From the NCBI GenBank assembly GCA_965242965.1, contig OZ251518.1, positions 3,513,838 through 3,577,837 on the forward strand: DNA of 64,000 bases, given 5' to 3'. The notes beneath the pieces were generated by a model. It saw nothing but the letters and a program-made list of their open reading frames with translations, did no database searches and was not told where the DNA came from. This DNA is from Candidatus Poribacteria bacterium. GTDB taxonomy: Bacteria; Poribacteria; WGA-4E; WGA-3G. The position numbers and the translations under genes are program-made. Within the stretch, counting starts at the first letter, position 1; each line of letters opens with the position of its first letter. Below are positions 7,021 to 55,757 of the stretch, in pieces.

Positions 7021-7599
7021 TTAACCGGTTAAATTGGCGCGGAGCTCCGAAAGCGGTTTATCGGAATTCGCGGAAATCCGAAGAGCGAACCGTTCGCGCG
7101 CGTCCTCCGAAGTCCGTTTCACCGTAAAAGCATCGTTGCCATACATCTGCTGCAGCACGGGAGTGAGAACTGCCTGGAGGGTATCCGCTGTCGCCTGCGT
7201 ATTCGGCGCGAGATTGCGGTTGTTCACCATAAATAGGAGATTCGCGCCGCTGAAATGCACGGCATCTTCCAATTCGGCGGACGCTTCCAACTGTTCGCAT
7301 TTGGACAGTACTTCCGCAAGTGCCTGGCGAATCTTTTCGGCGTTGTCGCCTTTGACGGCGTGCTTCCGGTTGTAGAGGAAGCCCGGCTGATGCCACGCGT
7401 TGTCAATGCTGTAGTTAGCGCGCTTGGAAATCAGCAGCACGCCCGGTCCCGCGTCGACATGCGAATAATCGGCGTAGTTGAGATAGTCATCTTGCTCACC
7501 TTCGTCCATCCAGCGGTTGAAAACCTTGATGAAGTCGGTGTAGTTGATACGGCTGTCTTCGGTGGTAAACACCTTGATATTAATCTGTTGTAAATCCAT
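7021..7599 (-). CDS. hypothetical protein
   Basis: 192-aa ORF with no recognisable motif; two direct copies of CGCATTGCGAA(A/C)A(G/A)ACAAAAA lie immediately upstream of its ATG (7600-7645). Confidence 0.55.
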   Translation of the reverse strand: MDLQQINIKVFTTEDSRINYTDFIKVFNRWMDEGEQDDYLNYADYSHVDAGPGVLLISKRANYSIDNAWHQPGFLYNRKHAVKGDNAEKIRQALAEVLSKCEQLEASAELEDAVHFSGANLLFMVNNRNLAPNTQATADTLQAVLTPVLQQMYGNDAFTVKRTSEDARERFALRISANSDKPLSELRANLTG

Positions 7600-7689
7600 T
7601 TTTTGTCTTTCGCAATGCGGTTTTTGTTGTTCGCAATGCGTTCGGCTACGTCTTTTGTTGTCTGACGTTTCCTTACGTTAGAGGGCTCT

Positions 7690-7780
7690 CCTACTGGGAG
7701 GAGTCGAGACCGGGAGGTCCCTCCTACCAAGGCAGGAGTCGAGACCGGGAGGTCTCTCCTACCCAGAGGGTATTGAGATT
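7690..7780. repeat. three tandem family-A hairpin units (GAGACCGGGAGGTC(T/C)CTCCTACC)
   Basis: Seen directly at 7694-7720, 7727-7750 and 7752-7776. Confidence 0.8.
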
Positions 7781-7928
7781 CTGTCATCGACTATTGACGT
7801 TGTCGATGGTTGTCGATGCCTCGTTTTCTGGTGCTAATTGCTACCAGTCGTGAAAGTGTGAAAAAACTCGTTAGGCGCGGCGTTGCAAACGCGCGTGTTC
7901 CTCGTGAAAATAGGCTCGGTTGATTCCT

Positions 7929-8174
7929 TTAGGCTATCCCCAGTTCGCTCACGTTTTGCCCATCAACGCTGACAACGGTGACTTCCGCTGAGGGTAGCCA
8001 GAAAATCTGCCCATTGTTGTCACAGATACAAACCATTGCGTATTCGCCTGCGTCTACGTTGGCGAGAAAATTGCCCAAAAAAGCGTTCGGTGCCGCCGAC
8101 TTATAGGCACCAAAACCGGTGCCGAGCAAACAGTAACGTTTGCCGGTTCGCACGTATTCCACGATTGTTGCCAT
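7929..8174 (-). CDS. hypothetical small protein
   Basis: 81-aa ORF; a plausible promoter TTGCAC-N17-TAAACT and GATTGCGAAAGACAG x2 direct repeats (8338-8367) lie upstream. Confidence 0.45.
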   Translation of the reverse strand: MATIVEYVRTGKRYCLLGTGFGAYKSAAPNAFLGNFLANVDAGEYAMVCICDNNGQIFWLPSAEVTVVSVDGQNVSELGIA

Positions 8175-8389
8175 CTGTTCTTCCTTCGTAGGCGCGCTTT
8201 GTCATCGCGCTTCCCAAATGGGCGTTTTAGGAATTCGCGTCCAGTTTGGACGTTATTAGTTTAACACAAACCGTAATCTCGTGCAAGCGATTTTCATTCT
8301 CGCTAGAAAACCGCCGTCCCTCTGTCGCGCGAGTGCCTGTCTTTCGCAATCCTGTCTTTCGCAATCCTGCCTGGCGCAATCTCGTTCCG

Positions 8390-9406
8390 TTACTGAACCT
8401 CCTCATTCGCGCGCTTCACCAACGCATTCATGTAGGCGATGGTATACGCGGTGCCAACGCGAGAATCGCCAGCCATGCTCGGAATGTGGTCTGGAATCAT
8501 CACGCCGTTGAAGTTCACCTCTCGAAGAACCTTCGCAACCTGATACATATCCTGATAGCCGTTGTCGACGAACGTCTCCACGAAGTGCGGGAGCGGCTGA
8601 TCTACGTTGCGGAAATGCACCTTGAAAATCTTGCCGCGTTCGCCGAAGTATCGGATAGATTCAATGACATCTTTGCCCATCAATTCGCCGCCTTCGAGCC
8701 AGCAGCCGACGCAGAAGCACATCCCGACGTTCGGGCTATCCGCAATCTCAAGCGCGCGTTTGTAGCCCTCGAAACTGCTGAAAATGCATCGCGGAATGCC
8801 GGCGAGATGCACTGCCGGCGGATCATCGGGATGGATGCCTATCATCACGCCTGCCTCCTCGGCGACAGGCGCGGCTTCCTTGATGAAGTGCGCGTAGTTA
8901 TCCCACAACTCCGCCTCGCTGAATTCGCGTCCGTGCGAAAGCGGCATCGGGTAGGTATTACCACCCCAGTGTCCCTCTTGCGCGGTTTCCAGATTGAACG
9001 CCCGCGCGCTTGCACCGCCACGCGTCGTCTCGCGCGCAGTGCTCCAAATGCCGTTGCCCATGTGCGCATACGTCGTGTAGGGAATCCCGGCTTTGCCCAA
9101 GTCGCGAATATACCGCTTATACTGCTCAAGTTTGGCATCGCGATTCGCTAGGTTCAACACGATGCTGTCCTGATTATGGACATCGCTGTTGCCGAATCCA
9201 TAAATTTTCAGACCGGCGTTCTCGAAAATCTCGCGGCGGCTCATGAAATAGTCGTAATTTGCATTCGCGCCGTTCGTCCACAGCACCACGTAATCAACAT
9301 CCATCTGCTTAGCAAATTGCAAGTCTTCCGGGGTTGGCTCCGGCGACATCTGCGCCGTGACTTTGATGCCGGGTTCAATGTTTTGTAACGGGTTTTGTGT
9401 TGCCAT
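8390..9406 (-). CDS. uxuA: mannonate dehydratase
   Basis: UxuA-like TIM-barrel sequence (…YFGERGKIFKVHFRNVDQPLPHFVETFVDNGYQDMYQVAKVLREVNFNGVMIPDH…). Start set at ATG 9406 with GGAGG 9 nt upstream; the ORF extension to 9439 lacks an RBS. Confidence 0.8.
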   Translation of the reverse strand: MATQNPLQNIEPGIKVTAQMSPEPTPEDLQFAKQMDVDYVVLWTNGANANYDYFMSRREIFENAGLKIYGFGNSDVHNQDSIVLNLANRDAKLEQYKRYIRDLGKAGIPYTTYAHMGNGIWSTARETTRGGASARAFNLETAQEGHWGGNTYPMPLSHGREFSEAELWDNYAHFIKEAAPVAEEAGVMIGIHPDDPPAVHLAGIPRCIFSSFEGYKRALEIADSPNVGMCFCVGCWLEGGELMGKDVIESIRYFGERGKIFKVHFRNVDQPLPHFVETFVDNGYQDMYQVAKVLREVNFNGVMIPDHIPSMAGDSRVGTAYTIAYMNALVKRANEEVQ

Positions 9407-33084: not shown

Positions 33085-33202
33085 TTCCGGCGGCGACTTA
33101 CTTTCCCACGGGGTTGCCCCCGCAGTATCATCAGCGCAGAAGGGCTTAACGGCCGTGTTCGGGATGGGAACGGGTGGTGCCCCTTCGCTATAGCCACCGG
33201 AA
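33085..33202 (-). rRNA. rrf: 5S ribosomal RNA
   Basis: Minus strand TCCGGTGGCTATAGCGAAGGGGCACCACCCGTTCCCATCCCGAACACGGCCGTTAAGCCCTTCTGCGCTGATGATACTGCGGGGGCAACCCCGTGGGAAAGTAAGTCGCCGCCGGAAAACC; ends approximate within ~3 nt. Confidence 0.9.
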
Positions 33203-33292
33203 AGGTGTTTTGTCATATATTGTATTGACAAGAAAATTTGACAATTGCATAGATTAGGTGAGGGTGTCGGTAGAAGAAATAATAAAGAAGTT

Positions 33293-36283
<2,991 letters not shown>

Positions 36284-36378
36284 ATAAGGTGATATTATTA
36301 TTCTACCGATTTACCCTCTCTATGCAATTGTCAAAGAACCCCGCCTTGCACAGGAGCGGGCGCTCCCTTACAAGACGA

Positions 36379-36451
36379 TGGAGATGAGCGGAGTTGAACC
36401 GCTGACCTTCTGGTTGCAAACCAGATGCTCTCCCAACTGAGCTACACCCCC
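36379..36451 (-). tRNA. tRNA-Ala (anticodon TGC)
   Basis: GGGGGTGTAGCTCAGTTGGGAGAGCATCTGGTTTGCAACCAGAAGGTCAGCGGTTCAACTCCGCTCATCTCCA; G3:U70 Ala identity pair present; CCA not encoded. Confidence 0.9.
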
Positions 36452-36469
36452 AAGTGGCATTACTCTTTA

Positions 36470-36901
36470 AGTATACCACAAAAAAACGCATTTGTCAAAT
36501 TTATTTTTCAAAAAAACGGATTTGCTGACACAAACCCTCGCGATGGTATATAGTATACCACGAAAACTGCGCAATGTCAAATTAAAATCAAATTAAAATG
36601 ACAATTTCGTCATCGTTGAGGTTAATTATACCACAAAAAAGATGCAATGTCAAATTAAAATGACGATTTCTGCGAATTTCTGCTGAATTACGCCACAAAA
36701 AGTGCGCGATGTCAAATTAAAACGACAATTTCGTCATCGTTGAGGTTAATTATACCACAAAAATGACGCAATGTCAAATTAAAATGACATTTTCTGCGGA
36801 ATTCTTGTTAATTCTGCCCCAAAAAGTGCGCGATGTCAAATTAAAACGACAATTTCGTCATCGTTGAGGTTAATTATACCACAAAAATGACGCAATGTCA
36901 A
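36470..36901 (-). promoter_or_regulatory. array of seven tandem sigma70-consensus promoters directed at tRNA-Ala/23S/5S
   Basis: Plus-strand coordinates of -35 (TGTCAA) and -10 (complement of the -10 hexamer), spacer exactly 17 in every case. P1: 36493-98 / 36470-75 (TATACT). P2: 36575-80 / 36552-57 (TATACT). P3: 36648-53 / 36625-30 (TATAAT). P4: 36710-15 / 36687-92 (CGTAAT). P5: 36772-77 / 36749-54 (TATAAT). P6: 36834-39 / 36811-16 (CAGAAT). P7: 36896-901 / 36873-78 (TATAAT). AT-rich UP-like TTTTAATT precedes each -35. Underlying ~125-bp tandem DNA repeats. Confidence 0.75.
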
Positions 36902-36903
36902 AT

Positions 36904-38859
36904 TTATTTAAAAAAAGTGCTCGTATCCCACAGCAGAATGGTGCCATCGAAACTGCCGCTCGCCAAAAGCGCGCCATCCGGCGAAAAGGCAAGAGACTGA
37001 ATGTCAGTGGAATGTCCCCAGAAAGTGGCGATGTTCTCACCCGTTGCAACCTCCCAGAATCTGATGGACATCTTATCCGTGCCTTGCCACGCTGCCCCCG
37101 ATACGAGATACCTGCCACATGGCGAAAATGTCAACGCCTCCGGTCTTTGGCATCCTTGCGGCAGGCATATCACCATGAGCGTTTCATACCTTTTCGCGTC
37201 CCATAGCCAAATTTCCCGGAAAATTCCACCGGCAATCACGTTCCCGCATGGCGAAAATACAACAGTCTTTGGAACAGCATTGTATTCTATCCGTTTAAGT
37301 GCGCGTTGAATTTGACGCGCATCGCCTTTATATTTCTCTAAATCTTTGGGACGGTGAGTGGACAGTTCCGTGATGAGCCGCCAATCGTCAACATCCCAAA
37401 GGAACGCTTTCGTATAGGGAGACGCGACAGCGAGGGACTTTCCATCAGGCGAAAAAGCGATGTGCCAAATCCAATCCGATTTTCCGTTCAGCGTCTGTAG
37501 CGCGGTTCCGTTTTGTAAATCCCACTCTATCAGGCCGCCGCCACCATCTGCGCTCACTAATCGTTCCTCTGTTGGAGAGAACGCGACAGCATAAATCGGT
37601 TTTTCCTGATGTCCCGTTAACTTCGCAATCGGCGCGTCGGGTTTCTCAACGTCCCACACCCTGACTATGCCATCGTAGGCACTGGCGGCGAGTTTGTTTC
37701 CACACGGCGAAAAACTGATTGAACGGATTGTCATCGGTTCTTCTGCGAAAACGACTTGCGGTTCTCGCCGCGCAACATCCCAAAAGATTATGTCTCCTAT
37801 CCAATGGCCGGCAGCCAACTTTTTTCCATCTGGGGAGAATTTGACGCAGCCACAGACATAGGGATGCTTCCGAATAAGGGCTTCGTGCGGCGTGGCCTCG
37901 CCGATATTCCACACCTGAATTGTGCGAGGACCGGCGATGGCCACGTGCGACTCTGTGGTTTGCGAAAAATGCGTGGCATGCGAAATTTCGCGCAGCTCTT
38001 TATGTTCCAACGCCGCTAATTTTTTGTTGCGTTCCATATCCCACACAATGAGCGTGGTGCCGCTGACCTCGGATGCGAGCAAAGTTCCCTTTGACGAATA
38101 AGCGAATCTCTTCCGGCCATTTGTCGAGGAGACGGTTGAAGGTTCTCCGGTTTCCGCGAGTCGGTTGACATCCCACTTCCGCAGCGTGCCCTCTCTGTCC
38201 GCTGTCGTCAGGAAAGTCCCGCACGGCGAGAAGAGCAGTGTTGTTACCGATGCCGTATGTCCGGTGAGACAAGCGATGCGTTCACCCGCTGTCAGATTCC
38301 AGACAGAAAAGGTGTTTTCAGCTGTCGCGCATGCGAGCAGAACGCCGTCCGGAGAAAAGGCGATGGGAATCCTCGGAAGAGGCCCCTTTTTAGGGGTATC
38401 GTCAACGGGGAATTCCGCAAGCGGTTCTCCGGTTTCGGCGTGCCAGACGTAAACAGTATCGTAGCGGCCCCCGGAACACGCTAAGCGTTGTCCGTCGGCT
38501 GAAAAGGCGAGCCGAGATACCTTATTCGCCTGTTTCCGGGTTCGTTCCATTTTGGCGATGCGTTGTTGGCTTGGCATATCCCAGACGCTCACGCCACCGT
38601 CCACATTGCCGGTAGCAAGCAAATGCCCGTTCGGCGAAAATGTCACCGCAGAAACCCCGCGTTCGGTATCCCATAACGCGAACGGTTCCATCGTGGACAC
38701 CTCGTAGAGCCAGAGCCCGATACCACTTCCGACGGCGAGAGTGTTCCTGTCTGGAGAGAATGCCAGTGCCCGCACCAACCCTCTGCCCAATCGTGCAATC
38801 GCGCCATCGGGGAGAATCCATGTGGTAATATCGCTATTTGCGCGATGCTGATTTTCCAC
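36904..38859 (-). CDS. WD40-repeat beta-propeller protein
   Basis: At least 12 WD40 repeats (e.g. GHSTDIQSLAFSPDGALLASGSFDGTILLWD). The start is uncertain: GTG at 38859 is preceded by GGAGG 6 nt upstream and avoids overlap with the LamG gene; the ATG-start ORF extends to 39075 but overlaps the upstream gene by 59-197 nt. Confidence 0.7.
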   Translation of the reverse strand: MENQHRANSDITTWILPDGAIARLGRGLVRALAFSPDRNTLAVGSGIGLWLYEVSTMEPFALWDTERGVSAVTFSPNGHLLATGNVDGGVSVWDMPSQQRIAKMERTRKQANKVSRLAFSADGQRLACSGGRYDTVYVWHAETGEPLAEFPVDDTPKKGPLPRIPIAFSPDGVLLACATAENTFSVWNLTAGERIACLTGHTASVTTLLFSPCGTFLTTADREGTLRKWDVNRLAETGEPSTVSSTNGRKRFAYSSKGTLLASEVSGTTLIVWDMERNKKLAALEHKELREISHATHFSQTTESHVAIAGPRTIQVWNIGEATPHEALIRKHPYVCGCVKFSPDGKKLAAGHWIGDIIFWDVARREPQVVFAEEPMTIRSISFSPCGNKLAASAYDGIVRVWDVEKPDAPIAKLTGHQEKPIYAVAFSPTEERLVSADGGGGLIEWDLQNGTALQTLNGKSDWIWHIAFSPDGKSLAVASPYTKAFLWDVDDWRLITELSTHRPKDLEKYKGDARQIQRALKRIEYNAVPKTVVFSPCGNVIAGGIFREIWLWDAKRYETLMVICLPQGCQRPEALTFSPCGRYLVSGAAWQGTDKMSIRFWEVATGENIATFWGHSTDIQSLAFSPDGALLASGSFDGTILLWDTSTFFK

Positions 38860-38878
38860 GCGCGCCCTCCGCGTTTGT

Positions 38879-39712
38879 TTACGGGGTATACCCGCGTTTG
38901 ACGTTTGCCCAAGTGGTTGCGAGTTTGTCAACCGCATCGACAGCAAAAGTGCCAGAGATGTTTTGGAGCACCTCTGCCTCGGTGAGTGCCTTATCATAAG
39001 CGCGGACGATGGCGAATGAACCGTTGAAAGTCCGCCGCCGTTCGTCGAAGGAATTCGCACCGATGGAGATGTCATTTATCGGTAACGCCTTGTCAAACTC
39101 AAAACCGGCTTGGCTGCTGACTTCTTCGCCATCTTGATATGCGACAATCGACTTGTCGTTAGTGCCGACAATCGTAAGCCAGGTCCACACGCCTTCCTCA
39201 AGTTTGAGGTTAAGCGGTTGAACGCCCTGTTTCGCACCTTGCGCATGGACAGAGATGTCCAAGTTTTGCCCGTTGACTATCCACAGCCGAATTCCCTGTT
39301 TCCCTTCCCGCGGGCTGTTTTGGAACCCGGCGAAGTGGTGTTCCTCCACAAAGAAATCGCCGTTGCGTCGGCAAAGGAACTCAAGCGTCCAGTCCTCAAA
39401 AAAGAGAGGCGGATTTTTTGCCGGCGGACCGCCGAAGGTTTGATGGGAATCCTTGGTTGTGTAATACTTCGCGTTCGGCAAGTCGATGCCGAGTGCAGGG
39501 ATTTTGATTGGCCCTTCCTCAAGTTCGGGTGCTTCGTCCGCGGCGGGTAATTCGCCTTCAGCCGTGCCGAGGTTTGTCCACGCGTCTTTGTGGCCTGGAT
39601 TATCAGCGGCATCGAGGTAAAGCACCGGGTCTGGAACGATATTAGCATTTGCGATGTTGCACGCGAGGGATAGGCAAAGTATCGTCGTGCAAAGTGAAAT
39701 AAGTGTTCTCAT
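38879..39712 (-). CDS. secreted LamG/concanavalin-A-like lectin-fold protein
   Basis: Signal peptide MRTLISLCTTILCLSLACNIANA; jelly-roll signature ...FNGSFAIVRAYDKALTEAEV. Confidence 0.6.
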   Translation of the reverse strand: MRTLISLCTTILCLSLACNIANANIVPDPVLYLDAADNPGHKDAWTNLGTAEGELPAADEAPELEEGPIKIPALGIDLPNAKYYTTKDSHQTFGGPPAKNPPLFFEDWTLEFLCRRNGDFFVEEHHFAGFQNSPREGKQGIRLWIVNGQNLDISVHAQGAKQGVQPLNLKLEEGVWTWLTIVGTNDKSIVAYQDGEEVSSQAGFEFDKALPINDISIGANSFDERRRTFNGSFAIVRAYDKALTEAEVLQNISGTFAVDAVDKLATTWANVKRGYTP

Positions 39713-39812
39713 TTGAGTCTTCCTCCTAGGGTTTGGAAAATAGATATGCCTCCGTTTCTGCTTGAAAACTATTATAACAGCATTTCAACATTTATTCAAG
39801 AGATAAAATAAG

Positions 39813-40560
39813 GGAATTTCATATTTCGATGTCTTTTTGGTAGGAGAGACCTCCCGGTCTCAATTTGTCCGTAGCGCGGGGGCCTGTCCCCCGCGATCGC
39901 AGCATGGCGAGGGACAGGCCCTCGCCCTACGGTGCGGGGGGTGGCGTTTTCGCGATCGCTGCATGGCCTACGATGAAGGGGGGAGGCGTTTTTTTTTCGT
40001 ATCGCGGGGGGGCTCGGATGCCAGACGCGCATCCGGGCTGGTTTCCCCCGCGAGTTCCATCGTCATGATGTGTGTTTCCCTCTCTGTAGTTTGTGATCGC
40101 CTGATCACAAACAGGTTAGGATCAGGCAATCCTGACCTACAGGGCCTGGCGCGAGAACGATGACGAGGGCCTGTCCCTCGCCATCGTTCGCGCTGCGGAA
40201 AAACCGTCTCTTGTTCTCTTCAGGTCCGTAGGACCTGAATGTCTATAGCAGCCGATACGCAAAATGCTCTAAGGGCCTTTAGGTCCTTAATAGCTTTTGC
40301 CAGGGCCGCGTGTTTTCTTATTAAGGACCTAAAGGACCTTGACAACGGTACGACACGTTTTTCTATAGACATGTAGGTCCTAACGGACCTAAAACGCCAC
40401 CTTGTGACGATGGAACAACGCGGGGGACAGGCCCCCGCGCTCCGGTAAAAAACGCCATCCCCTCACCGTAGGGCGGGGGCCTGTCCCTCGCCATCGTCCG
40501 CGCAATCCAATCCTCGCGGGGGACAGGCCCCGCGCTACGGATGCATCGAGACCAGGAGGT
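39813..40560. repeat. repeat island inside the 16S-23S insertion (E-like, A, B x3, D, B, C, B x2, A)
   Basis: Seen directly; ORFs 39837..40163, 39865..40068 and 40363..40803 (N-terminal part) are artefacts. Confidence 0.9.
40197..40397. repeat. C element copy 4
   Basis: AAAAACCGTCTCTTGTTCTCTTCAGGTCCGTAGGACCTGAATGTCTATAGCAG...TATTAAGGACCTAAAGGACCTTGACAAC...TATAGACATGTAGGTCCTAACGGACCTAAAACGCCAC. Confidence 0.85.
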
Positions 40561-40669
40561 CTCTCCTACCGGGATGCATGGATACCCGGCGCGCCTACCG
40601 GCAATTCCCCGTTTTTTGACTGTAGCTGAAGAAAACGCAATCGAAATCAGCAGCCATTGTGCATGTCTC

Positions 40670-40840
40670 CTAGCGAGTGTTTTCTGTAACGGCCGAGGGA
40701 TGTGGGCAGGTAACTTGCCCGGGTCTGTAATCACAATAACCTCTCCACCGGCATCCCTTCGTAACTGTTTGAGTCTTTTGACACCGGCTTCGTTCTGAGG
40801 CAACGATGAGAACCAGGAGAAAAACGATAAAGGCTTTCAT
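40670..40840 (-). CDS. possible small secreted Cys-containing peptide (56 aa)
   Basis: MKAFIVFLLVLIVASERSRCQKTQTVTKGCRWRGYCDYRPGQVTCPHPSAVTENTR; GGAG 8 nt upstream of the ATG. Below the 60-aa ORF-track cutoff; lies between a repeat island and tRNA-Ile. Confidence 0.3.
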   Translation of the reverse strand: MKAFIVFLLVLIVASERSRCQKTQTVTKGCRWRGYCDYRPGQVTCPHPSAVTENTR

Positions 40841-40988
40841 AAAACACTCCTTTTAAGAGCGACGGGCCATCGGGCAATTTGAAAAAACGAGGGGACAACG
40901 AGTAGGAAAGAAGGTATCCGTTCAGAAAACAACGACGATTTGAAAAGGGACCTTCCTTGAAAACCGCGCGATGTCAGTTTGATGTTGA

Positions 40989-41062
40989 TGGGCTTATCTG
41001 GAGTCGAACCAGAGACCTCGCGCTTATCAGGCGCGCGCTCTAACCGTCTGAGCTATAAGCCC
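40989..41062 (-). tRNA. tRNA-Ile (anticodon GAT)
   Basis: GGGCTTATAGCTCAGACGGTTAGAGCGCGCGCCTGATAAGCGCGAGGTCTCTGGTTCGACTCCAGATAAGCCCA; perfect 7-bp acceptor stem. Confidence 0.92.
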
Positions 41063-41160
41063 GAAGTAATGTTCTTGAAAGTTAAATAGTTTCAGTGAGT
41101 GTGCCCGTTAAGGTTCAGAGCGTGAACAGATGATTTGTGTGAGAAAGCATCTGTTGTATG

Positions 41161-42712
<1,552 letters not shown>

Positions 42713-42868
42713 CCACAAAAGTATTGAAGCACATCTCAAACGCAGGTAAGTGGAAAATCATACCCACGTCTTAATTGAGGTGCACTCACAAGCTATAAAA
42801 TAGGCACGTCACGTTCACTATTTAACTTTCAAAGAACAACTTCACCTTTCGTTGAAAGGTTATCTTTA

Positions 42869-48177: not shown

Positions 48178-48743
48178 ACTGAGGGTGTTTCATATTTCGA
48201 TGGCTTCCCAGTAGGCGAGTTCTCCCGGTCTCGATTTCTTCGGGTAGGAGAGCCCTCCTGGTCTCGATGCAGTTTGTCCTCTGTCCCTCGCCATCGTTTG
48301 CACACTCAACGATCGCGGGGGACAGGCCCCCGCGCTACGGTAAAAAAACGCCCCGGGTTACCGTAGGGCGAGGGCCTGTCCCTCGCCGTGCCTGTTCCTT
48401 GTAAAAGACCGTAGTTCGGGAGCGCCCGCTCCCGAACCGTTTGTGATCAGGCGATCACAAACTACAGAGGTGGAAACACACATCATGACGATGGAGTTCG
48501 CGGGGGAAACCCGCTCGGATGCGCGGCTGGCATCCGAGGGCCCCCGCGCTACGATAAAAAACGCCATCCTTTCACCGTAGTACGTGGGCCTGTCCCTCGC
48601 CATCGTCCGCGCAATCCAACGCGCGGGGGACAGGCCCCCGCGCTACGGGAACATCGAGACCAGAGGGCTCTCCTACCGAGGATCTATTGAGACCGGGAAG
48701 TCTCTCCTACGGGTGTGCGTCGAAATATGAAACACCCTCATTT
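48178..48743. repeat. repeat island bracketed by 26-nt inverted terminal copies of the E motif
   Basis: Left ACTGAGGGTGTTTCATATTTCGATGG (48178-48203); right CGAAATATGAAACACCCTCATTTAAG (48718-48743). Interior: A x2, B pairs, D palindrome, B pairs, A x2. Confidence 0.9.
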
Positions 48744-49233
48744 AAGCCTTTTCGCCGGCCTGCTGTAATGCTTCATCAATAACCGATTTTCCCAAATAGA
48801 TTCCGTTCGTCTGCATCTGGGTTAAAAGCGGTTTGATGGTATCAATTAACCCGTTTTCCTTTGCTTCCAGCAAAACGCCGACGGTGCCTTTAACCGATAA
48901 TCCGATGTGTTGCGCATACCGTCTTGCTCGTTGCTCATCAATAATGACGAGGCGCGCGTTGTGTTCTATTGCCAAGGCAATGACTGCGGCCTCGCCCGGG
49001 TCAAGTTTTACCGGCATCAAAAGGGATGGCTGAACTGTCTTCGGAAATGTTCGGAGCCACGGCGAATTTTTCAGTGCATCCTCGCGGGCTGTCGGCTCAA
49101 CCCTAAGAAACTCATTTTTGACTTCTTCAGGCATCCACACCTCTGTATAGAGTTCGCGTAGCAGCGGCAGATGGTTGAGCATCCATAGCGCGACGAGTGG
49201 GCTATTATTGATTATTACCGGATGTGTGGGCAT
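48742..49233 (-). CDS. DUF3368-family PIN-like protein (putative toxin partnered with UPF0175)
   Basis: VIINNSPLVAL...GTVGVLLEAKENGLIDTIKPLL matches the DUF3368 pattern. Start set at ATG 49233 (MPTHP...); it overlaps the stop of the upstream UPF0175-containing gene by 29 nt. Confidence 0.65.
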   Translation of the reverse strand: MPTHPVIINNSPLVALWMLNHLPLLRELYTEVWMPEEVKNEFLRVEPTAREDALKNSPWLRTFPKTVQPSLLMPVKLDPGEAAVIALAIEHNARLVIIDEQRARRYAQHIGLSVKGTVGVLLEAKENGLIDTIKPLLTQMQTNGIYLGKSVIDEALQQAGEKA

Positions 49234-50419
49234 CCGCGCATTTTTGGCCATTCGCAAAATCCGCTGCCAGTTCCCCTGGTGTTTCGCCAAAGGGAGAAAG
49301 TCGGTATTTTCCCATAAAAATCATAAACTCGCTATACGGCATGCATGCCAGCCGTGCGGCAAGTCCGCTGCTGAGTTCATGGGTTTTGTAGTATTTCAAT
49401 GCTAACATCTGACGAGTCTCTTTTTCACATTCACCCGGGTCTTTCTTGCGAGTCAGCAGGGCGGCGATGTCCTCTGGCAATTTGATGCCAATTTTCCGTT
49501 CAAAATGGCCAACGCTTTTGTAGGTGTCATGGAACGCGGCGATGATATCCAGCACCTTGAACTTGGCGGCACCCAGGTCTGCTTTTGCCTTGTCCCATTC
49601 GCGCAGCCGTAGCCACGCTTCGCCCCGGTAGTAATGCGCCTCAGCATACGCCGGGTTGAGTGTTATCGCCGTGTTGTAGTCCTGGATCGCGCGTTCGGTT
49701 TTCCCTTGGCGAAGGTAAGCCACACCGCGATTGTTGTAAGCAATCGGTTCATCCGGTGCCAAGGCTATTGCGCGATTATAGTCCGCGATGGCACGTTCGC
49801 GCTCACCTTTTCTATCATAGACAATGCCTCGATTGATATACGCCTCGGTGCAATCTGGTTTGAGCATGATTGCAGTGCTATATTCTGCAATAGCAACGTC
49901 AATCTCCTCTTTTTTACACAAAGCGATGCCGCGGTTGACATACGCCTCGGCAAGTTTGGGATCGAGTGCTATCGCCGTGTTATAGTCTTCAATGGCGACG
50001 GCCATCGCTGTCGGATAGGGAGTTTCGCTGCAACGGCTAGGGGCCGGGTTCATGCCTACTGGGACGTTATAGCGTTTGAGGATTGCGTCAACCTCGCCGT
50101 TTTTTTCGTAAGCGATGCCGCGATTGACGTAGGCTTCGGCAAACGTTGACTCTAATTCAATCGCCTTGCTCAACACTGTGATAGCCATGTCATGGGAGCC
50201 GCATTTGATGGAATCCAACCCCAAATTGTAGTAGGCGTTCACGTAATCCGGACGCAATTCGATCGCCTGCATAAAAGCACCGATTGCCAAACCGTGCTCG
50301 CCTTCTTCACTATAAGCGATACCGCGGGCGTTGTATGTTTCGGCTAATTCTGCCTCTTGCAGTGTGTCAAGTGCCGTGTCAGCAAAGCCGACAGGAACTG
50401 CGATGAACTCTAGCATCAC
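49205..50419 (-). CDS. TPR-repeat protein fused to a C-terminal UPF0175-like antitoxin domain
   Basis: About eight TPR repeats (AYxNRGxAYxxxGxxxxAIxDYNxAIxLxP), then C-terminal ETRQMLALKYYKTHELSSGLAARLACMPYSEFMIFMGKYRLSPF, characteristic of UPF0175. Confidence 0.7.
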   Translation of the reverse strand: MMLEFIAVPVGFADTALDTLQEAELAETYNARGIAYSEEGEHGLAIGAFMQAIELRPDYVNAYYNLGLDSIKCGSHDMAITVLSKAIELESTFAEAYVNRGIAYEKNGEVDAILKRYNVPVGMNPAPSRCSETPYPTAMAVAIEDYNTAIALDPKLAEAYVNRGIALCKKEEIDVAIAEYSTAIMLKPDCTEAYINRGIVYDRKGERERAIADYNRAIALAPDEPIAYNNRGVAYLRQGKTERAIQDYNTAITLNPAYAEAHYYRGEAWLRLREWDKAKADLGAAKFKVLDIIAAFHDTYKSVGHFERKIGIKLPEDIAALLTRKKDPGECEKETRQMLALKYYKTHELSSGLAARLACMPYSEFMIFMGKYRLSPFGETPGELAADFANGQKCADAHTSGNNQ

Positions 50420-50498
50420 TTTTTCTCCTTTACAAAGTTGATTGCGTCTGGGAATATAATAACGGATTAGCGGACAGAAGTCAAGCGAAATTCGCGAT

Positions 50499-50890
50499 TT
50501 GTCTGAGGGTATTTCATATCTCGATGGCTTCCCCGTAGGAGAGCCCTCCCGGTCTCGATGCGAGCGGTGTCCCCGTAACCGAGCTCTCCTGGTCTCGATG
50601 CAATTTGTCCTTGTCCCTCGCTATCGTCCGCGTAATCCAACGCTCGCGGGGGACAGGCCCCCGCGCTACGGTTGTCAAGGCCGCTTCCTTTCATCGTAGG
50701 GCGAGGGCCTGTCCCTCGCCATGCTTCGATCCACCGAACGCTCGCGGGGGACAGGCCCCCGCGCTACGGTAACGGGAGGGGTTCTTAGTCGAAAAACGCC
50801 GTCCTTTCCCGTAGGGCGAGGGCCTGTCCCTCGCCATGCTGCGGTCTACCGGACAGTCGCGGGGGACAGTCCCCCGCGCTACGGTACTGT
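50499..50890. repeat. repeat island (E, A x3, B pairs x3)
   Basis: CTGAGGGTATTTCATATCTCGATGGCTTCCCCGTAGGAGAGCCCTCCCGGTCTCGATG... then REP-like pairs. Confidence 0.85.
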
Positions 50891-52960
50891 GACATTAATG
50901 CCATAAAGCGCAGCCACCTCCCGTTCCAGCACAACCTCAAGCGCAGATACATCCGCCGCAAAATCCGCGCGTTTCGCAGACAGAATCGCATCAACTAACG
51001 CAACAACCGGTGCCTGCCGCGCCGGCGAAACATCTGGAATCGGCAGTTTCTTCCAATCATCCGGATAGAGGTGGATATTGCTCCGACGATTTGCCATTAA
51101 GAAATCACGCGCTACGTTTGAATTCATCACGCCGAGCAGGAACTTCACCGAGAATCGACGACTCGTTTTTTCCAATTCTTCGCGCCGCGGGAGTTCCGGA
51201 CGCTGAGGCTTTTCATCACGATAACGAGCCTTCTGTTTTATCGAGCGGTTCCGAACCCCTGCTAAATCGTGCCAAAGCACGAAGGACCAGGCTGATTGAT
51301 TATGACGGAGATGCTGAGCATCGTAGGATACCTTCAATTTCTCAACGCCAGCCGCCATGTCCGCCGAAATTAATCTTTCCGCAACTTCGTATAATTCGGG
51401 AAACGTTGTTGACGTGAATAAGGCAGGCGCGCGTTCTGTCCCCCACTCCAGCCATTTCTTTGTCGCGGGCAGCCAGCGCGCGAGATGTTTGCCTTCCACA
51501 AACGGTTTCGGGTGAGTTGCGTCTTGGATATCTGAAACCAAATCCCGCACGCCAAACGCGCCGCGCGCGTGCTTGTTCGCATGAACTACCATCCCAACAG
51601 AGATATAGCAGAGGGTTTCAAGCGTCACCGTTGGAACAGAAAACTGCTGAACCTCGGTATCTTCCGGAAAAAAGAGACGATAGGTGAGGTTCCGTTGTGC
51701 GTCGGTTGGCAATAGAGTAACGTTCCCAAATTCGGGCCCGTGCAGCCTGCGTTCCGGTTGATGCTCGCGCCCATCAACTCTCTGAAACAGATAGGTGATA
51801 TTCCGCACGGCGGCATCGAAGATTCGGATATCGCGGAAGAAGTCAAGGCGACATATCCGACTATTCTCCCGAAACCACTCCTGCGATTTCTGGGCATACT
51901 TCGCGTGACAATAGGCATCCGAAACGATGAATGTCGTGAAACCTCCCGGCTTGAGCAGTTTGTAGCTGCGCTCAATAAATGGAATGTAGAGATCCCACTT
52001 TCCGAAGAGGGTTTCATACTGCGCGCTATCCTTAATTGCCTGACGCAACGCCTGTTGCCCCGGTGCATCCGCTCTCACGTAAGGCGGATTACCAATCGTA
52101 ATATCAAATCCTGCCGAAATCCCAAACATCCATTCCGCATTGAAGAAATCAGCAGAGGCGTTCTGATTATACGGGTCCCACGCTGCCAACTCTTGCGCCG
52201 TGCCACTCGGTAAGCCTAAGTCAGCAAGCAACGCGCTTATCTCCGTGCGCAAACGTTTATCCTGCCGGCGATACCGCGCCTTCGTCCGAAGCGTGCGAGC
52301 CGTGAAATGACGACGACGCACCTCTGATAGCTCCCGCTCCTTCTCGCTGATGTCGGGGCTGCGGAGAGACAATTGTCCTTCAATGCCGAGCAGCGTGTTC
52401 GCCGCAACGAACTTCGTTTCCAAATTCGGCAACGGCCGCACACCGCGATTCGCCTGTGTTTCGTCTAGCCGCTGATCGACGATAAGCGAGATGAAGAAGC
52501 GCAGCTTGGCAATCTGCGTCGCAATCGGCTGGATGTCCACGCCGTAGATGCAGTTTTCTATCAGATAGAGTTTCCTGCCGTAGTCCAGTTCGTTCCGTTC
52601 AAACGCGTCGTTGATGCTCTCTATCTCGCTTTCAAGTTCGTGGAGCGTGTTTTCGCGGAACGTGCTGTCGTCAATCTGTTCGGCGGCGGCGATGGTGCGG
52701 CGCACCCTGTCTATCTGGCGTTGCCGCCACTGTGCATTGCCCGGGTCAAGTTTACCAAGCAGGAAGACGAGTTTGTGCAGGATGCCCATCGGGAAGGCAC
52801 CGGAGCCGCAGGCAGGATCGAGGATTTTGAGCGCGTCAATGGCGGTGATGAGGCACTCGGTTTCTGCTTCGGTGAACCGATGCGGTTCATCGGTATAGGC
52901 GAGGAGGTGGCGCAGGGCTGCGTCCAAATCGGTGGACTTTACCCCCCCCCTTCGCGTCAC
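50879..52960 (-). CDS. MmeI-like Type IIG restriction-modification enzyme, C-terminal part (gamma-class N6-adenine methyltransferase motifs I and IV plus target-recognition region); frameshifted from the upstream ORF
   Basis: ILDPACGSGAFPMGIL (motif I) and ITIGNPPYVRAD (motif IV). The ORF begins with GTG inside a G9 run; it is out of frame by 1 nt with 52887..54515. Confidence 0.7.
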   Translation of the reverse strand: MTRRGGVKSTDLDAALRHLLAYTDEPHRFTEAETECLITAIDALKILDPACGSGAFPMGILHKLVFLLGKLDPGNAQWRQRQIDRVRRTIAAAEQIDDSTFRENTLHELESEIESINDAFERNELDYGRKLYLIENCIYGVDIQPIATQIAKLRFFISLIVDQRLDETQANRGVRPLPNLETKFVAANTLLGIEGQLSLRSPDISEKERELSEVRRRHFTARTLRTKARYRRQDKRLRTEISALLADLGLPSGTAQELAAWDPYNQNASADFFNAEWMFGISAGFDITIGNPPYVRADAPGQQALRQAIKDSAQYETLFGKWDLYIPFIERSYKLLKPGGFTTFIVSDAYCHAKYAQKSQEWFRENSRICRLDFFRDIRIFDAAVRNITYLFQRVDGREHQPERRLHGPEFGNVTLLPTDAQRNLTYRLFFPEDTEVQQFSVPTVTLETLCYISVGMVVHANKHARGAFGVRDLVSDIQDATHPKPFVEGKHLARWLPATKKWLEWGTERAPALFTSTTFPELYEVAERLISADMAAGVEKLKVSYDAQHLRHNQSAWSFVLWHDLAGVRNRSIKQKARYRDEKPQRPELPRREELEKTSRRFSVKFLLGVMNSNVARDFLMANRRSNIHLYPDDWKKLPIPDVSPARQAPVVALVDAILSAKRADFAADVSALEVVLEREVAALYGINVTVP

Positions 52961-54515
52961 AGATGTTAACTCTTAAGGCGTTTTTCAGATAGGCGATGAG
53001 GGATTCATTTACCATGTAATTGACGATGTCGCGCGGCGTGTAAAACGAGCCGGTCTGCTTGCGTGCGGTTATCCCCGTTTCGGGGTTAGAGGCGGCGAGG
53101 AGGTTTTCAAAGACGCGCCCGAGCAACTCGGGGTCCAACGCAACTTCCTCCTCGATGGGCGTATTCTCGGATATCGTGAACTTATAGCGGTTGAGAATGT
53201 GAATGATGCCGCGCACGGTATAGCGTCGGTTTCTCGTGCCGTAAACGGCGTTGAGATCTACGGTGTGTTCTTCGGCGAAGAAGAGTTCGTTGGGGACGCG
53301 CAGTGGGTTGTCGTCCCTGTCAGAAAAGCCTTCTACCCGTAAGATGCGTTGCGGCTGTTCAGCATCGGGTTTATCCAAACACTCAAACAGGCCGCCATTG
53401 AGGAACGGAATTGTCTCAAAGAGGCGGCGTGCTTCTTCGGGTTCCCGAAAATAGCGTTTGTATCGGTAAAGCGAGGTGATGTTATAGTGCTGTTGTCCAT
53501 CGCCACGGAACTGGCGGCGGTTTGGATGTTCCGGGGTGTTCATCTCCTGATTGAGCGTCGCGAAAAAGAGGTTTTGGAGGATGGCTTTGTAGTAGGAGGA
53601 ATCGAGCCCGGCGTTCTCGCCTACGGGGGAGATGAGCAGTCTGTTTATCTCCTTTTCATCAAAGAGCGCGTCTGGGACGAGCCCTTTCTCCTTGAGAAAC
53701 CAGACGAAGATAAGCCGCGTAATGAGCCGGATGACGCACGTAGCATTGCGCCCGGCAACGTCTTCGCCGGCATCGGCGGGGAAGGTGACGTTGTCCACAG
53801 CCCAGAAATACCAATCGGCGAGTTCCCGGAAGAAGCGTTTGTTGAGCGCGGCACTATCCAGCGTCTTCTGCCACGCTTGATGCAATTCAAGGAAATTGGT
53901 GAACTGATGGGCTCGGTGAAGTTCGCCGAGGGATAAGTCCGCCAGAATGTCCACGTGTGCGCGGTGCGGGTTGACGATGTCAATATCCTTGATGAGACTG
54001 ACTTTTTCGAGGACATCCCGTTCTCCCTCACGCTGGCTAGGACGGCGATGGATGAGGGAGAAAGTGAGCGTCTGTCCATGCTGAAAGAGGAGCATCGCGG
54101 GCATGGCGAACACTTTGTTGATTTCGCGGGTGATGTTGGCGAGCGCGGTGCGAGTGTAGACAGTCCCCCGCAGTTTGACAGCGAGGAAGAGATAGGCACG
54201 GTAGATGTCTGGGTTGAATCCGTCCTGTGCCGCGAAGGTTATGGTGCCTTGGGACTGCTGCGCGATTTCGTCTTCGGTGAGTTGGAAGAGAAAGTCGCAG
54301 GTATCCCATTCTGACAGTAACGCCTTTTCAGGGTTGAGCGTCCAACGCGCGAGGAATCCCTCGGCGGTGTTGGGTTCAATGGTAAGCGTTCTGTCGCTAT
54401 CATAACCTAACACGCCGAGGAGATGACGCGCGTTATCGGCGAGGGAACCGGATGTGAACCGACTAAGTGCCGCTTGAATCTGGGCTTTGTGGGATGCGTC
54501 GTTCATAAGTTGCAT
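52887..54515 (-). CDS. MmeI-like Type IIG restriction-modification enzyme, N-terminal part (nuclease-like region, helical linker and methyltransferase motif X)
   Basis: LDPELLGRVFENLLAASNPETGITARKQTGSFYTPRDIVNYMV (motif X of gamma-class MTases; compare MmeI ...FGSLFQSIM...GAHYTSEANILKLI). The helix VIRLITRLIFVWFLKEKGL resembles MmeI LYLVRLLFCLFAED. No motif I/IV in this fragment; they continue in the next ORF. Confidence 0.7.
   Translation of the reverse strand: MQLMNDASHKAQIQAALSRFTSGSLADNARHLLGVLGYDSDRTLTIEPNTAEGFLARWTLNPEKALLSEWDTCDFLFQLTEDEIAQQSQGTITFAAQDGFNPDIYRAYLFLAVKLRGTVYTRTALANITREINKVFAMPAMLLFQHGQTLTFSLIHRRPSQREGERDVLEKVSLIKDIDIVNPHRAHVDILADLSLGELHRAHQFTNFLELHQAWQKTLDSAALNKRFFRELADWYFWAVDNVTFPADAGEDVAGRNATCVIRLITRLIFVWFLKEKGLVPDALFDEKEINRLLISPVGENAGLDSSYYKAILQNLFFATLNQEMNTPEHPNRRQFRGDGQQHYNITSLYRYKRYFREPEEARRLFETIPFLNGGLFECLDKPDAEQPQRILRVEGFSDRDDNPLRVPNELFFAEEHTVDLNAVYGTRNRRYTVRGIIHILNRYKFTISENTPIEEEVALDPELLGRVFENLLAASNPETGITARKQTGSFYTPRDIVNYMVNESLIAYLKNALRVNICDAKGGGKVHRFGRSPAPPPRLYR
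52942..52950 (-). other. G9 (plus-strand C9) homopolymeric tract inside the RM gene, candidate slipped-strand phase-variation switch
   Basis: ACCCCCCCCCTTCGCG seen directly. Removal of one G fuses ...NICDAKGG to VKSTDLDAALRHLL... giving a ~1215-aa protein. Confidence 0.6.
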
Positions 54516-55512
54516 TCAGAAAATCGACTAATTCCGCGAAGTTATCGAAGATGCGTTCGCAGAGGTTTTCAAAAAAAATGCTCCGTTCGCCGCTGTAAAC
54601 AGCGTAGACAGGCTTGTTATAGCGAGAGGCATAGTTCATCTCACTCAGCACGCCGGGCGACAACTTGTCCGTAGGATAGATAACCACCACGAAATCACTC
54701 TGATGGAGAAACTGATAATCACGGGAGATAGTGCGGGTTTTGATTTGTTGAATGACGTTCTCGTCGATTGTCGGGATGCGGCGGTCCAACCCTATCGTCG
54801 AAGATTGGCTTTCCCGGACGAGTGCCATGTCCTTAATCGAAAGCGGATCAAAGACAATAAATGCCTCTCGCAGTTTTGCGCCGAGTGCACGAATCTCCTC
54901 AATTTCCGCCGGTGTCTCCCGCAAAATCGTGATGGGATAGCTGAGATACAGCGACGGTTTTGAAGAGAAAATCAGTTCATAAAAGTTATCAAGCGGATGC
55001 TGGCGCGCGACGGTGTAGTGGGATTTCTGATAGAGATTCGCGAGCTGCTTCGTCAGGAATTCCTCCTCGTCAATCCAGACGTTGAGCGTATCGTGCCCGA
55101 CGTTGCTCCACTGCGGGTTGTTCGCCATCCGGTTGGAGATGTCGGCGATGTTGTCAACGACGTTAATAAAAAGGTCTGGCGGGAAGCACTCGATCTCCTT
55201 AAACGAGATGCCTTCCAGCAGTGTGCCGCGCCAGCGGAAGCAGGCGTGCAAACCGATAACGGCGTGCTCGTAGTCGTCGGCGCGTTTGGCGATTTCATAA
55301 AAGGCAGCGCGACGCGCAAGGGATAAGACAGCCGGATCCGAATCCAGCACCTTTTCCGTGAAACGGATGCCGGATGCAGCGGCGGCGTTGTGCATGAAAT
55401 CGCCGACGTTAAAGAAGCCGATGTCTATCTCTTTTTGGTGACAGAGTGCCTCGAAATCGGCGATGAGTTCCTTGCGGCCGGCGCAGCTGATGCCGGTGCA
55501 GATGATGTTCAT
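54463..55512 (-). CDS. hypothetical two-domain protein: N-terminal P-loop-like region plus C-terminal nucleoside 2-deoxyribosyltransferase-like (Rossmann) domain
   Basis: Start set at ATG 55512 (MNIICTGISCAGRKE...); the longer ORF begins in a repeat island. C-terminus SLYLSYP...SDFVVVIYPTDKLSPGVLSEMNYASRYNKPVYAV fits the YLAGP...D.VVA.LDG...GT.FE.GYA.A.GKPV pattern of PF05014-like folds. Inference from motifs only. Confidence 0.5.
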   Translation of the reverse strand: MNIICTGISCAGRKELIADFEALCHQKEIDIGFFNVGDFMHNAAAASGIRFTEKVLDSDPAVLSLARRAAFYEIAKRADDYEHAVIGLHACFRWRGTLLEGISFKEIECFPPDLFINVVDNIADISNRMANNPQWSNVGHDTLNVWIDEEEFLTKQLANLYQKSHYTVARQHPLDNFYELIFSSKPSLYLSYPITILRETPAEIEEIRALGAKLREAFIVFDPLSIKDMALVRESQSSTIGLDRRIPTIDENVIQQIKTRTISRDYQFLHQSDFVVVIYPTDKLSPGVLSEMNYASRYNKPVYAVYSGERSIFFENLCERIFDNFAELVDFLNATYERRIPQSPDSSGT

Positions 55513-55529
55513 ATTTATGTTCCAATAAT

Positions 55530-55745
55530 GGCGAGGGACAGGCAGGCATTGGGCCCACCTCTGTAGTTCGGGAGCGCCCGATCCCGAACGGGTCAAGATC
55601 GCTTGGCAAACATGCCAGAGCTTCAGACGATCTTGACCTACAGGGGTGAGGCGTTCTGAACACCAAAACGCATGGCGAGGGACAGGCCCTCGCCCTACGA
55701 TAGAGAAGATGTCTCCGGTAGGAGAGACCTCCTGGTCTCGATGCC
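55530..55745. repeat. repeat island (B half, D palindrome, B, A)
   Basis: GGCGAGGGACAGGCAGGC..., CTCTGTAGTTCGGGAGCGCCCGATCCCGAACGGGTCAAGATCG...GATCTTGACCTACAGGGGTG, GGCGAGGGACAGGCCCTCGCCCTACG, CCGGTAGGAGAGACCTCCTGGTCTCGATG. Confidence 0.85.
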
Positions 55746-55757
55746 TCGATGCCTCCC

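Follow-up and report, generated by a model that had tools for sequence, protein, structure and literature searches.

A restriction-modification gene split at a nine-G run

We analyzed a 64,000-nt stretch of a Candidatus Poribacteria genome (contig OZ251518.1, positions 3,513,838 to 3,577,837; hereafter the window), in which a minus-strand gene for a Type IIG-like restriction-modification (RM) enzyme or methyltransferase is interrupted at a run of nine G. An initial annotation of this DNA had described two minus-strand open reading frames (ORFs) that fall out of frame exactly at the run, and we confirmed the split gene, its two ORFs, and the tract. The ORFs overlap on the minus strand in GCGAAGGGGGGGGGTAAAG, which holds exactly nine G. 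The gene and its parts are located as follows, in window coordinates:

50879–54515, minus strand: whole Type IIG-like RM/methyltransferase gene, 1211 aa if the run is G8, two ORFs as sequenced
52887–54515, minus strand: N-terminal ORF, 542 aa, with its last 17 codons out of frame; holds the N-terminal domain, the helical connector, and motif X
50879–52960, minus strand: C-terminal ORF, 693 aa from a GTG just 5′ of the tract; holds motifs I to IV, the Eco57I domain, and the target-recognition domain (TRD)
52942–52950, minus strand: G9 homopolymer (C9 on the plus strand) at which the frame shifts, proposed as the tract that slips
53841–54515, minus strand: N-terminal alpha/beta domain, aa 1–225, DUF4391-like
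53151–53840, minus strand: helical connector region, aa ~226–455, highly conserved in the family
53010–53054, minus strand: motif X (TGSFYTPRDIVNYMV), aa 488–502
52793–52822, minus strand: motif I (LDPACGSGAF), which binds S-adenosylmethionine (AdoMet), aa 565–574
51818–52555, minus strand: Eco57I-type methylase domain (Pfam PF07669), NPPY included, aa 654–899
52079–52090, minus strand: motif IV (NPPY), aa 809–812
50882–51817, minus strand: C-terminal target-recognition region, aa ~900–1211, similar in structure to the TRDs of M.TaqI, CamA, and M.BseCI

We then modeled the coding consequences of tract length. A G8 tract gives a single ORF of 1211 aa, in agreement with the earlier statement that loss of one G restores one long frame, and G11 gives 1212 aa. 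With G9 the N-terminal frame stops 17 codons past the tract, and with G7 or G10 it stops immediately. The tract encodes a glycine run at codon ~523 of 1211, in a surface loop between motifs X and I. The true start of the gene is likely the second Met (MND...) at 54506.

That the two ORFs make up a single gene, as proposed, was borne out by more than 100 full-length homologs (~1170–1300 aa) covering 99% of the repaired 1211-aa protein. The top two, P0001 and P0002, are 82% and 81% identical to it, respectively. Members of the family are named [quoted passage not shown] at NCBI, and many come from metagenome-assembled genomes (MAGs) of Candidatus Poribacteria and Latescibacterota.

Tract length and reading frame among relatives

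Close relatives were found in clusters built at 90% identity and by searching again with the N-terminal half of the protein; tract states were read from the DNA of the loci or, for some of the proteins numbered with P, inferred from protein tails. Neither of the window’s ORFs, nor any product that a G7, G8, G10, or G11 tract would give, had an exact match in the protein collection. The relatives, in frame (ON) or out of frame (OFF) at the tract, were as follows:

Window clade (N-terminal halves 92–96% identical, same synteny; gene order S49 peptidase, PhyH, 349-aa gene, RM gene, TPR-UPF0175, DUF3368)
Window: G9, out of frame
L034/L035 (SAMN12291529): G9, out of frame
L036 (SAMN12290269): G9, out of frame
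L037 (SAMN12290268): G9, out of frame
L038 (SAMN12290282): G10, out of frame
L039 (SAMN12291160): G7, out of frame
P0261, P0262: G9-type tails, out of frame

Sister clade (same synteny as the window clade)
L040/P0256: G13, in frame
P0255: EGGGGS, in frame
P0246: EGGGS, one Gly fewer, in frame
P0130, P0257: out of frame, in one wrong frame
P0253: out of frame, in the other wrong frame

Third clade (different chromosomal location; gene order 3-keto-disaccharide hydrolase, RM gene, LepA)
L002, P0265: G10, in frame
L030, L031 (also P0132 and P0134, by tail): G11, out of frame
L032: G9 followed by TGTG, out of frame
L033: G9 followed by TG, out of frame

Alleles without the tract
L001/P0001: intact, syntenic with the window, with GAAGGGCGCACC at the site
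P0125: intact, with a loop duplication

The tract is thus kept at one codon position across three gene clades and two genomic locations, and its length differs among close relatives. Tract-bearing alleles comprise ~5 ON and ~19 OFF, with all three frames represented. In the family alignment, the loop that holds the tract is hypervariable and rich in indels, and in the structural model of P0002 it lies between two helices with lowered per-residue confidence (pLDDT); in-frame length changes are tolerated there.

We evaluated how unusual such a run is. A model of independent and identically distributed bases predicts ~0.65 G/C runs of at least 9 nt in 64 kb, so a single G9 run by itself is not significant. 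Long G/C runs are nevertheless strongly depleted in this Poribacteria lineage: across 564 kb (the window plus related loci) we counted 76 runs of length 6, 10 of length 7, and 1 of length 8. Eight runs in the same DNA reach at least 9 nt, six of them at the tract site, and the tract at 52942–52950 is the only G/C run of at least 8 nt within the window. A need for glycine does not account for a pure G-run kept across three clades (dS, synonymous divergence, ~0.6–0.9), because GGG makes up only 19% of the window’s Gly codons. It is the recurrence at the same position in homologs that makes the tract non-trivial.

Homopolymers are error-prone, and the initial annotation had allowed that the run could be a sequencing error; the real gene would then be intact. 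The same G9 in the same frame recurs in assemblies from four other BioSamples with different flanking substitutions, which makes a one-off error unlikely, and other lengths are also reproduced across samples (e.g., G11 in L030 and L031). Random error would not repeat one length, and the nearest other length, G10, does not restore the frame either. We regard a sequencing or assembly error as highly improbable.

Beyond the three clades, a scan of GTDB representatives found relatives at most 72% identical, none with a long tract at the site (L019 has G6 runs), and scans of JGI metagenomes with one DNA pattern and one protein query returned nothing closer than 64%. G-runs in L053 and L056 are unrelated to the tract and lie 5′ of a homolog with a different N-terminus. 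Another tract that may be slippage-prone is a C12 homopolymer at 10170–10181 of L012, which is intergenic, just 3′ of a more distant Poribacteria homolog and 5′ of a small ORF. The loop between motifs X and I is itself an insertion hotspot, given the repeat-derived peptide insertions found there in several homologs, e.g., P0014 and P0145, and in the Chloroflexaceae homolog L026, where an insertion of ~950 bp (~7533–8489) consists of tandem peptide-like repeats and is partly N-masked.

Purifying selection on both halves of the gene

No allele contained further stops or frameshifts over ~3.5 kb spanning both halves. By the Nei–Gojobori method, the ratio of nonsynonymous to synonymous divergence (dN/dS) was 0.14–0.29 for the N-terminal half and 0.07–0.13 for the C-terminal half, reaching 0.26–0.29 in the latter solely in pairs with L036, which has a mosaic TRD. 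These ranges take in OFF-versus-OFF pairs (dS 0.06–0.30) and pairs within the all-OFF window clade. The window and L037, for example, differ by 93 synonymous and 63 nonsynonymous changes, and their gaps are whole codons only. Neutral decay would instead be expected to yield ~3 nonsynonymous changes per synonymous one, along with frameshifts and nonsense mutations. With both halves intact and dN/dS low even between OFF alleles, an old pseudogene is excluded.

A plain inactivating frameshift could still be recent, with the gene an early pseudogene and the homopolymer merely the site of mutation. All 7 loci of the window clade, the window among them, are out of frame, as this explanation would have it. 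Gene loss does happen, since more distant Poribacteria genomes, several of them long-read, hold decayed copies (L027, L029, P0247–P0254) that show internal deletions or multiple frameshifts outside homopolymers, or of which just a C-terminal remnant of ~220 aa survives. However, the G9 of five window-clade loci represents four sequence-distinct alleles that differ at 93–156 other positions with a strong synonymous excess; decay since their common ancestor would have produced the ~3:1 ratio and several stops. None of them has a nonsense mutation or any other frame-breaking indel, and tract length itself varies (G7/G9/G10 in one group, G10/G11/G13 in others). An early pseudogene is on this evidence quite unlikely.

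Purifying selection on both halves would also follow if the two ORFs were translated apart, the C-terminal half starting near the tract, and their products formed an active complex whatever the frame state. The break falls in a surface loop where homologs tolerate insertions of up to ~100 aa, and several alleles have start codons near the tract (GTG in the window, ATG in L030/L031, GTG in L032). These start codons are, however, not conserved among alleles, and we rejected a conserved internal start for the C-terminal half because they differ. L034 and L036 have a stop in the C-terminal frame just 5′ of the tract, so that their first start is a TTG after it, and in L033 the first start lies at motif I. 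No conserved ribosome-binding spacing was found, and the split would place motifs X and I, which belong to one AdoMet-binding fold, on different chains. We consider a functional split enzyme very unlikely.

One G9 allele differs from the others in its specificity region. L036, otherwise 92–100% identical, has a block of 30–75% identity in the C-terminal TRD (fused aa ~1015–1175), which suggests a recombinational TRD swap and, with it, a changed specificity.

Protein family and domain architecture

A Pfam search of the repaired protein gave one significant match, Eco57I (PF07669, E=7e-29), along with a weak N6_Mtase match. Motifs X, I, and IV, reported initially, are all present, and their order X-I-IV with NPPY is that of an Eco57I-type gamma-class N6-adenine methyltransferase. 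The best PADLOC model was REase_MTase_IIG (E=5.6e-61). A sequence search of the PDB matched only the methyltransferase core. For structure we used the AlphaFold model of P0002, the 81%-identical full-length homolog (mean pLDDT 84; predicted TM-score, pTM, 0.77), whose closest PDB entries were CamA, PglX/BrxX, M.BseCI, MmeI, and M.TaqI. Its C-terminal ~310 aa take part in structural alignments with the methyltransferase-plus-TRD chains of CamA, M.BseCI, and M.TaqI. Because of these family searches and structural matches, we place the protein in the broad single-chain architectural class of Type IIG, Type IIL, and PglX-like proteins with an Eco57I-type methyltransferase. We refer to it as a Type IIG-like enzyme, with predicted methylation and cleavage activities and a putative nuclease function.

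The initial annotation had called the architecture MmeI-like. The layout of N-terminal domain, helical connector, gamma-class N6-adenine methyltransferase, and TRD stood up, and membership of the MmeI family did not. In the comparison with MmeI hidden Markov models that had been proposed as a check, the score of MmeI_Mtase was 16.4 bits, below its cut-off of 27 bits, and its match covered 21 residues around motif I; the Pfam search of the repaired protein found no match to MmeI_N, MmeI_hel, MmeI_TRD, or MmeI_C. We rejected the MmeI family proper (Type IIL), as no MmeI domain exceeded threshold and the D-X8-EXK motif is absent throughout the protein’s own family. Membership of the bacteriophage exclusion (BREX) systems was likewise rejected: the NCBIfam BREX PglX models scored 29–42 bits against cut-offs of 400–900, and none of the partners BrxA/B/C, PglZ, and BrxL occurs near the gene in the window or in the relatives’ loci.

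The N-terminal domain matches DUF4391 below the Pfam threshold, and a literature search for DUF4391 turned up nothing useful. Its fold bears a weak resemblance to the N-terminal regions of DrdV and BpuSI, and the family alignment contains no conserved D...(D/E)XK in this domain. Conserved residues of the domain include Q78, R130, N133, D167, K171, D177, H184, and H187. The domain does something, since it is under constraint (dN/dS ~0.2). It had been suggested that the nuclease may be inactive, with Ala (LFLAVK) in place of the catalytic Glu of MmeI. This proved unfounded. The segment in question, DIYRAYLFLAVK, a candidate D103-X8-A-X-K, corresponds to DxxIIxSYLFxAIxL in the family consensus. 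At least 80% of intact homologs share the Ala, and the Lys is not conserved even among intact homologs, so LFLAVK does not represent an EXK motif lost by decay in the window genome.

A probable homopolymer contingency locus

The locus is probably a homopolymer contingency locus that switches a Type IIG-like RM enzyme or methylase, analogous to Cj0031 of Campylobacter. It has the features of a contingency gene: a homopolymer of at least ~8 nt lies inside the ORF, where a change in length shifts the frame; the length is polymorphic (G7/G9/G10/G11/G13) among relatives from different BioSamples, with ON and OFF alleles; and the gene is otherwise intact and under purifying selection despite the OFF alleles. 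In this comparison the G-run behaves as the phase-variable tract proposed in the initial annotation.

In the proposed mechanism, slipped-strand mispairing at replication would alter the number of G. A G8 or G11 tract in the window genome would give the full-length enzyme (ON), and G7, G9, or G10 would truncate it before the AdoMet-binding motif I (OFF); the sequenced G9 would be an OFF state. Switching OFF should be safe for a fused enzyme, because truncation would end methylation and any restriction together. Switching is expected to be reversible and frequent within a population, and the full-length enzyme presumably methylates adenine and may cleave DNA. The benefit could be bet-hedging between phage defense and the cost or self-toxicity of an RM system, or epigenetic heterogeneity.

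Several observations weigh against a contingency locus. There is no ON allele among the 7 window-clade loci, and five of these share exactly G9 although they have diverged up to dS ~0.19 in the N-terminal half; if the tract switched freely and were neutral, its lengths should be more scattered than this. ON alleles are a minority overall (~5/24), more distant Poribacteria genomes carry the decayed copies described above, and tract lengths come from consensus assemblies, which give one length per locus. Since a hypermutable tract would change many times over dS ~0.19, the shared G9 points either to an equilibrium or to G9 alleles that are still expressed. An equilibrium could arise if G9 were a mutational attractor adjacent to G8, the ON length, or if the habitat sampled favored the OFF state.

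Expression from G9 is what recoding would provide: RNA-polymerase slippage or +1 ribosomal frameshifting on the G-run would yield some full-length enzyme, and the tract would set a low expression level for a potentially toxic RM enzyme. This is the main rival to a contingency locus, because G9 predominates in the window clade without an ON allele despite divergence (five loci, four alleles, dS 0.06–0.19 in the N-terminal half, dN/dS ~0.07–0.29 over both halves). Most OFF alleles share one relative frame (mod3=1), which one +1 shift, or the loss of 1 nt from the RNA, would repair, and the G-run as read from the sequence would permit perfect re-pairing of tRNA-Gly after a +1 slip. However, both wrong frames are represented among OFF alleles (L033, L038, L039, P0130, P0253) and tract alleles also occur in frame (L002, L040), a distribution that no single programmed shift fits. 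We identified no conserved stimulatory element, such as a rare codon or a stop whose position is fixed, and most documented cases of efficient transcriptional slippage involve A/T runs. Recoding is in our judgment unlikely, and a functional split enzyme is the second, weaker rival. Even when the two are pooled, as a conserved recoding or attenuation site (slippage or +1 shift) or split halves that keep a self-toxic RM enzyme at a very low dose, we rate the possibility as rather unlikely.

Comparison with known systems

That homopolymers drive phase variation in RM enzymes and methyltransferases is well established, although to our knowledge the known cases come almost only from cultured host-adapted pathogens (Campylobacter, Helicobacter, Neisseria, Haemophilus). 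The closest parallel is Cj0031 of C. jejuni NCTC11168, a 1243-aa protein with an Eco57I domain whose G9 tract splits the gene into cj0031 and cj0032 and is absent from many strains; its switching, methylation motif, and phage restriction have been shown experimentally (PMC4889913). By the published description, the Poribacteria gene resembles it in encoding a single chain of ~1200–1250 aa with an Eco57I PF07669 methylase domain, in an intragenic G9 tract at which slippage splits the gene into two annotated ORFs, in having the tract in some alleles only, with an interrupted tract or none in other strains, and in its variable TRD regions. The two differ in tract position, at nucleotide 2573 of 3732 in Cj0031 and between motifs X and I (codon ~523 of 1211) in Poribacteria, and in host, a pathogen versus an uncultured sponge-associated phylum. 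Switching, motif, and phage restriction, experimental in Cj0031, are for the Poribacteria gene predictions from comparison.

With MmeI and DrdV (Type IIL) and BpuSI (Type IIG), the protein shares the one-chain order of N-terminal domain, helical connector, gamma-class N6-adenine methyltransferase, and TRD, and a Foldseek search with the full-length model matched MmeI (5hr4) at E ~1e-14 with a TM-score normalized to the target of 0.56–0.58. Unlike these enzymes, it has neither above-threshold Pfam MmeI domains nor D-X8-EXK, and it is ~300 aa longer, with a ~240-aa insert between motifs I and IV. MmeI, DrdV, and BpuSI are not known to be under homopolymer control. The likeness to BREX PglX/BrxX lies in size (~1200 aa) and overall fold (8q56, 8c45, and 9ex7 at Foldseek E ~1e-17, up to 1137 aligned columns), and the difference in scores far below the NCBIfam cut-offs and in partner genes not found nearby.

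In phasevarions, slippage of simple sequence repeats inside a methyltransferase ORF switches genome-wide methylation ON and OFF (reviewed in PMC12707154). Repeat slippage within a methyltransferase ORF is common to the Type III mod and Type I hsd phasevarions of Haemophilus, Neisseria, and Helicobacter and to the locus proposed here. Those systems, in contrast, are multi-subunit Type I or III enzymes of host-adapted pathogens, and their repeats are often tetra- or pentanucleotides, whereas the Poribacteria gene comes from a marine symbiont, is of a fused Type IIG-like kind, and has a mononucleotide run.

The device itself is therefore known; the new aspect is its host, the uncultured sponge-symbiont phylum Poribacteria, with population-level comparative support. 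RM systems are enriched in sponge symbionts (e.g., PMC5649159, PMC8163846), and the literature searched contained no report of phase variation in them. ON and OFF alleles of the present gene segregate among sponge samples. If the locus does switch, symbiont populations in sponges would hedge phage defense, or an epigenetic state, against its cost, and the ON/OFF ratio would be a marker readable directly from existing metagenomic reads. The case is also a caution for those who annotate MAGs: genes of this kind are called as pseudogenes or as a pair of ORFs.

Neighboring genes and repeats

Upstream of the RM gene, a 349-aa gene (54463–55512, minus strand) overlaps its start by ~44–53 nt and is kept in all syntenic relatives (L001, L034–L040). 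Its product has a weak Nuc_deoxyrib_tr match (24.5 bits, under the cut-off) and P-loop AAA_17 similarity. We rejected it as an obligatory RM partner, as it is absent from the L002 clade and has no PADLOC match. Directly 3′ of the RM gene (48742–50419, minus strand), a TPR-UPF0175 fusion gene (49205–50419) overlaps a DUF3368 (PIN-like) gene (48742–49290). This pair, of which some relatives (L001, L036) carry a duplicate, matches the PADLOC candidate defense system PDC-S70 (E down to 5e-45).

The intergenic regions around the RM gene are filled by clusters of palindromic repeats resembling repetitive extragenic palindromes (REPs) or miniature inverted-repeat transposable elements (MITEs), at 48250–48652, 50497–50886, and 55521–55754. 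Units are ~77–92 nt, occur as inverted pairs, and have the core CGTAGGGCGAGGGCCTGTCCCTCGCC / GCGGGGGACAGGCCCCCGCGCTACGG. The stop codon of the RM gene sits inside one such copy, and for this reason the protein ends in ...YGINVTVP in the window versus ...YGILDG in relatives.

Elsewhere in the window, an rRNA operon (33085–42719, minus strand) is interrupted by ~4.5 kb between tRNA-Ile and tRNA-Ala. Its genes are:

41169–42719, minus strand: 16S rRNA
40989–41062, minus strand: tRNA-Ile
36377–36452, minus strand: tRNA-Ala
33290–36286, minus strand: 23S rRNA
33085–33201, minus strand: 5S rRNA

The interruption carries protein ORFs, including a gene for a 723-aa WD40 beta-propeller protein (36904–39075).

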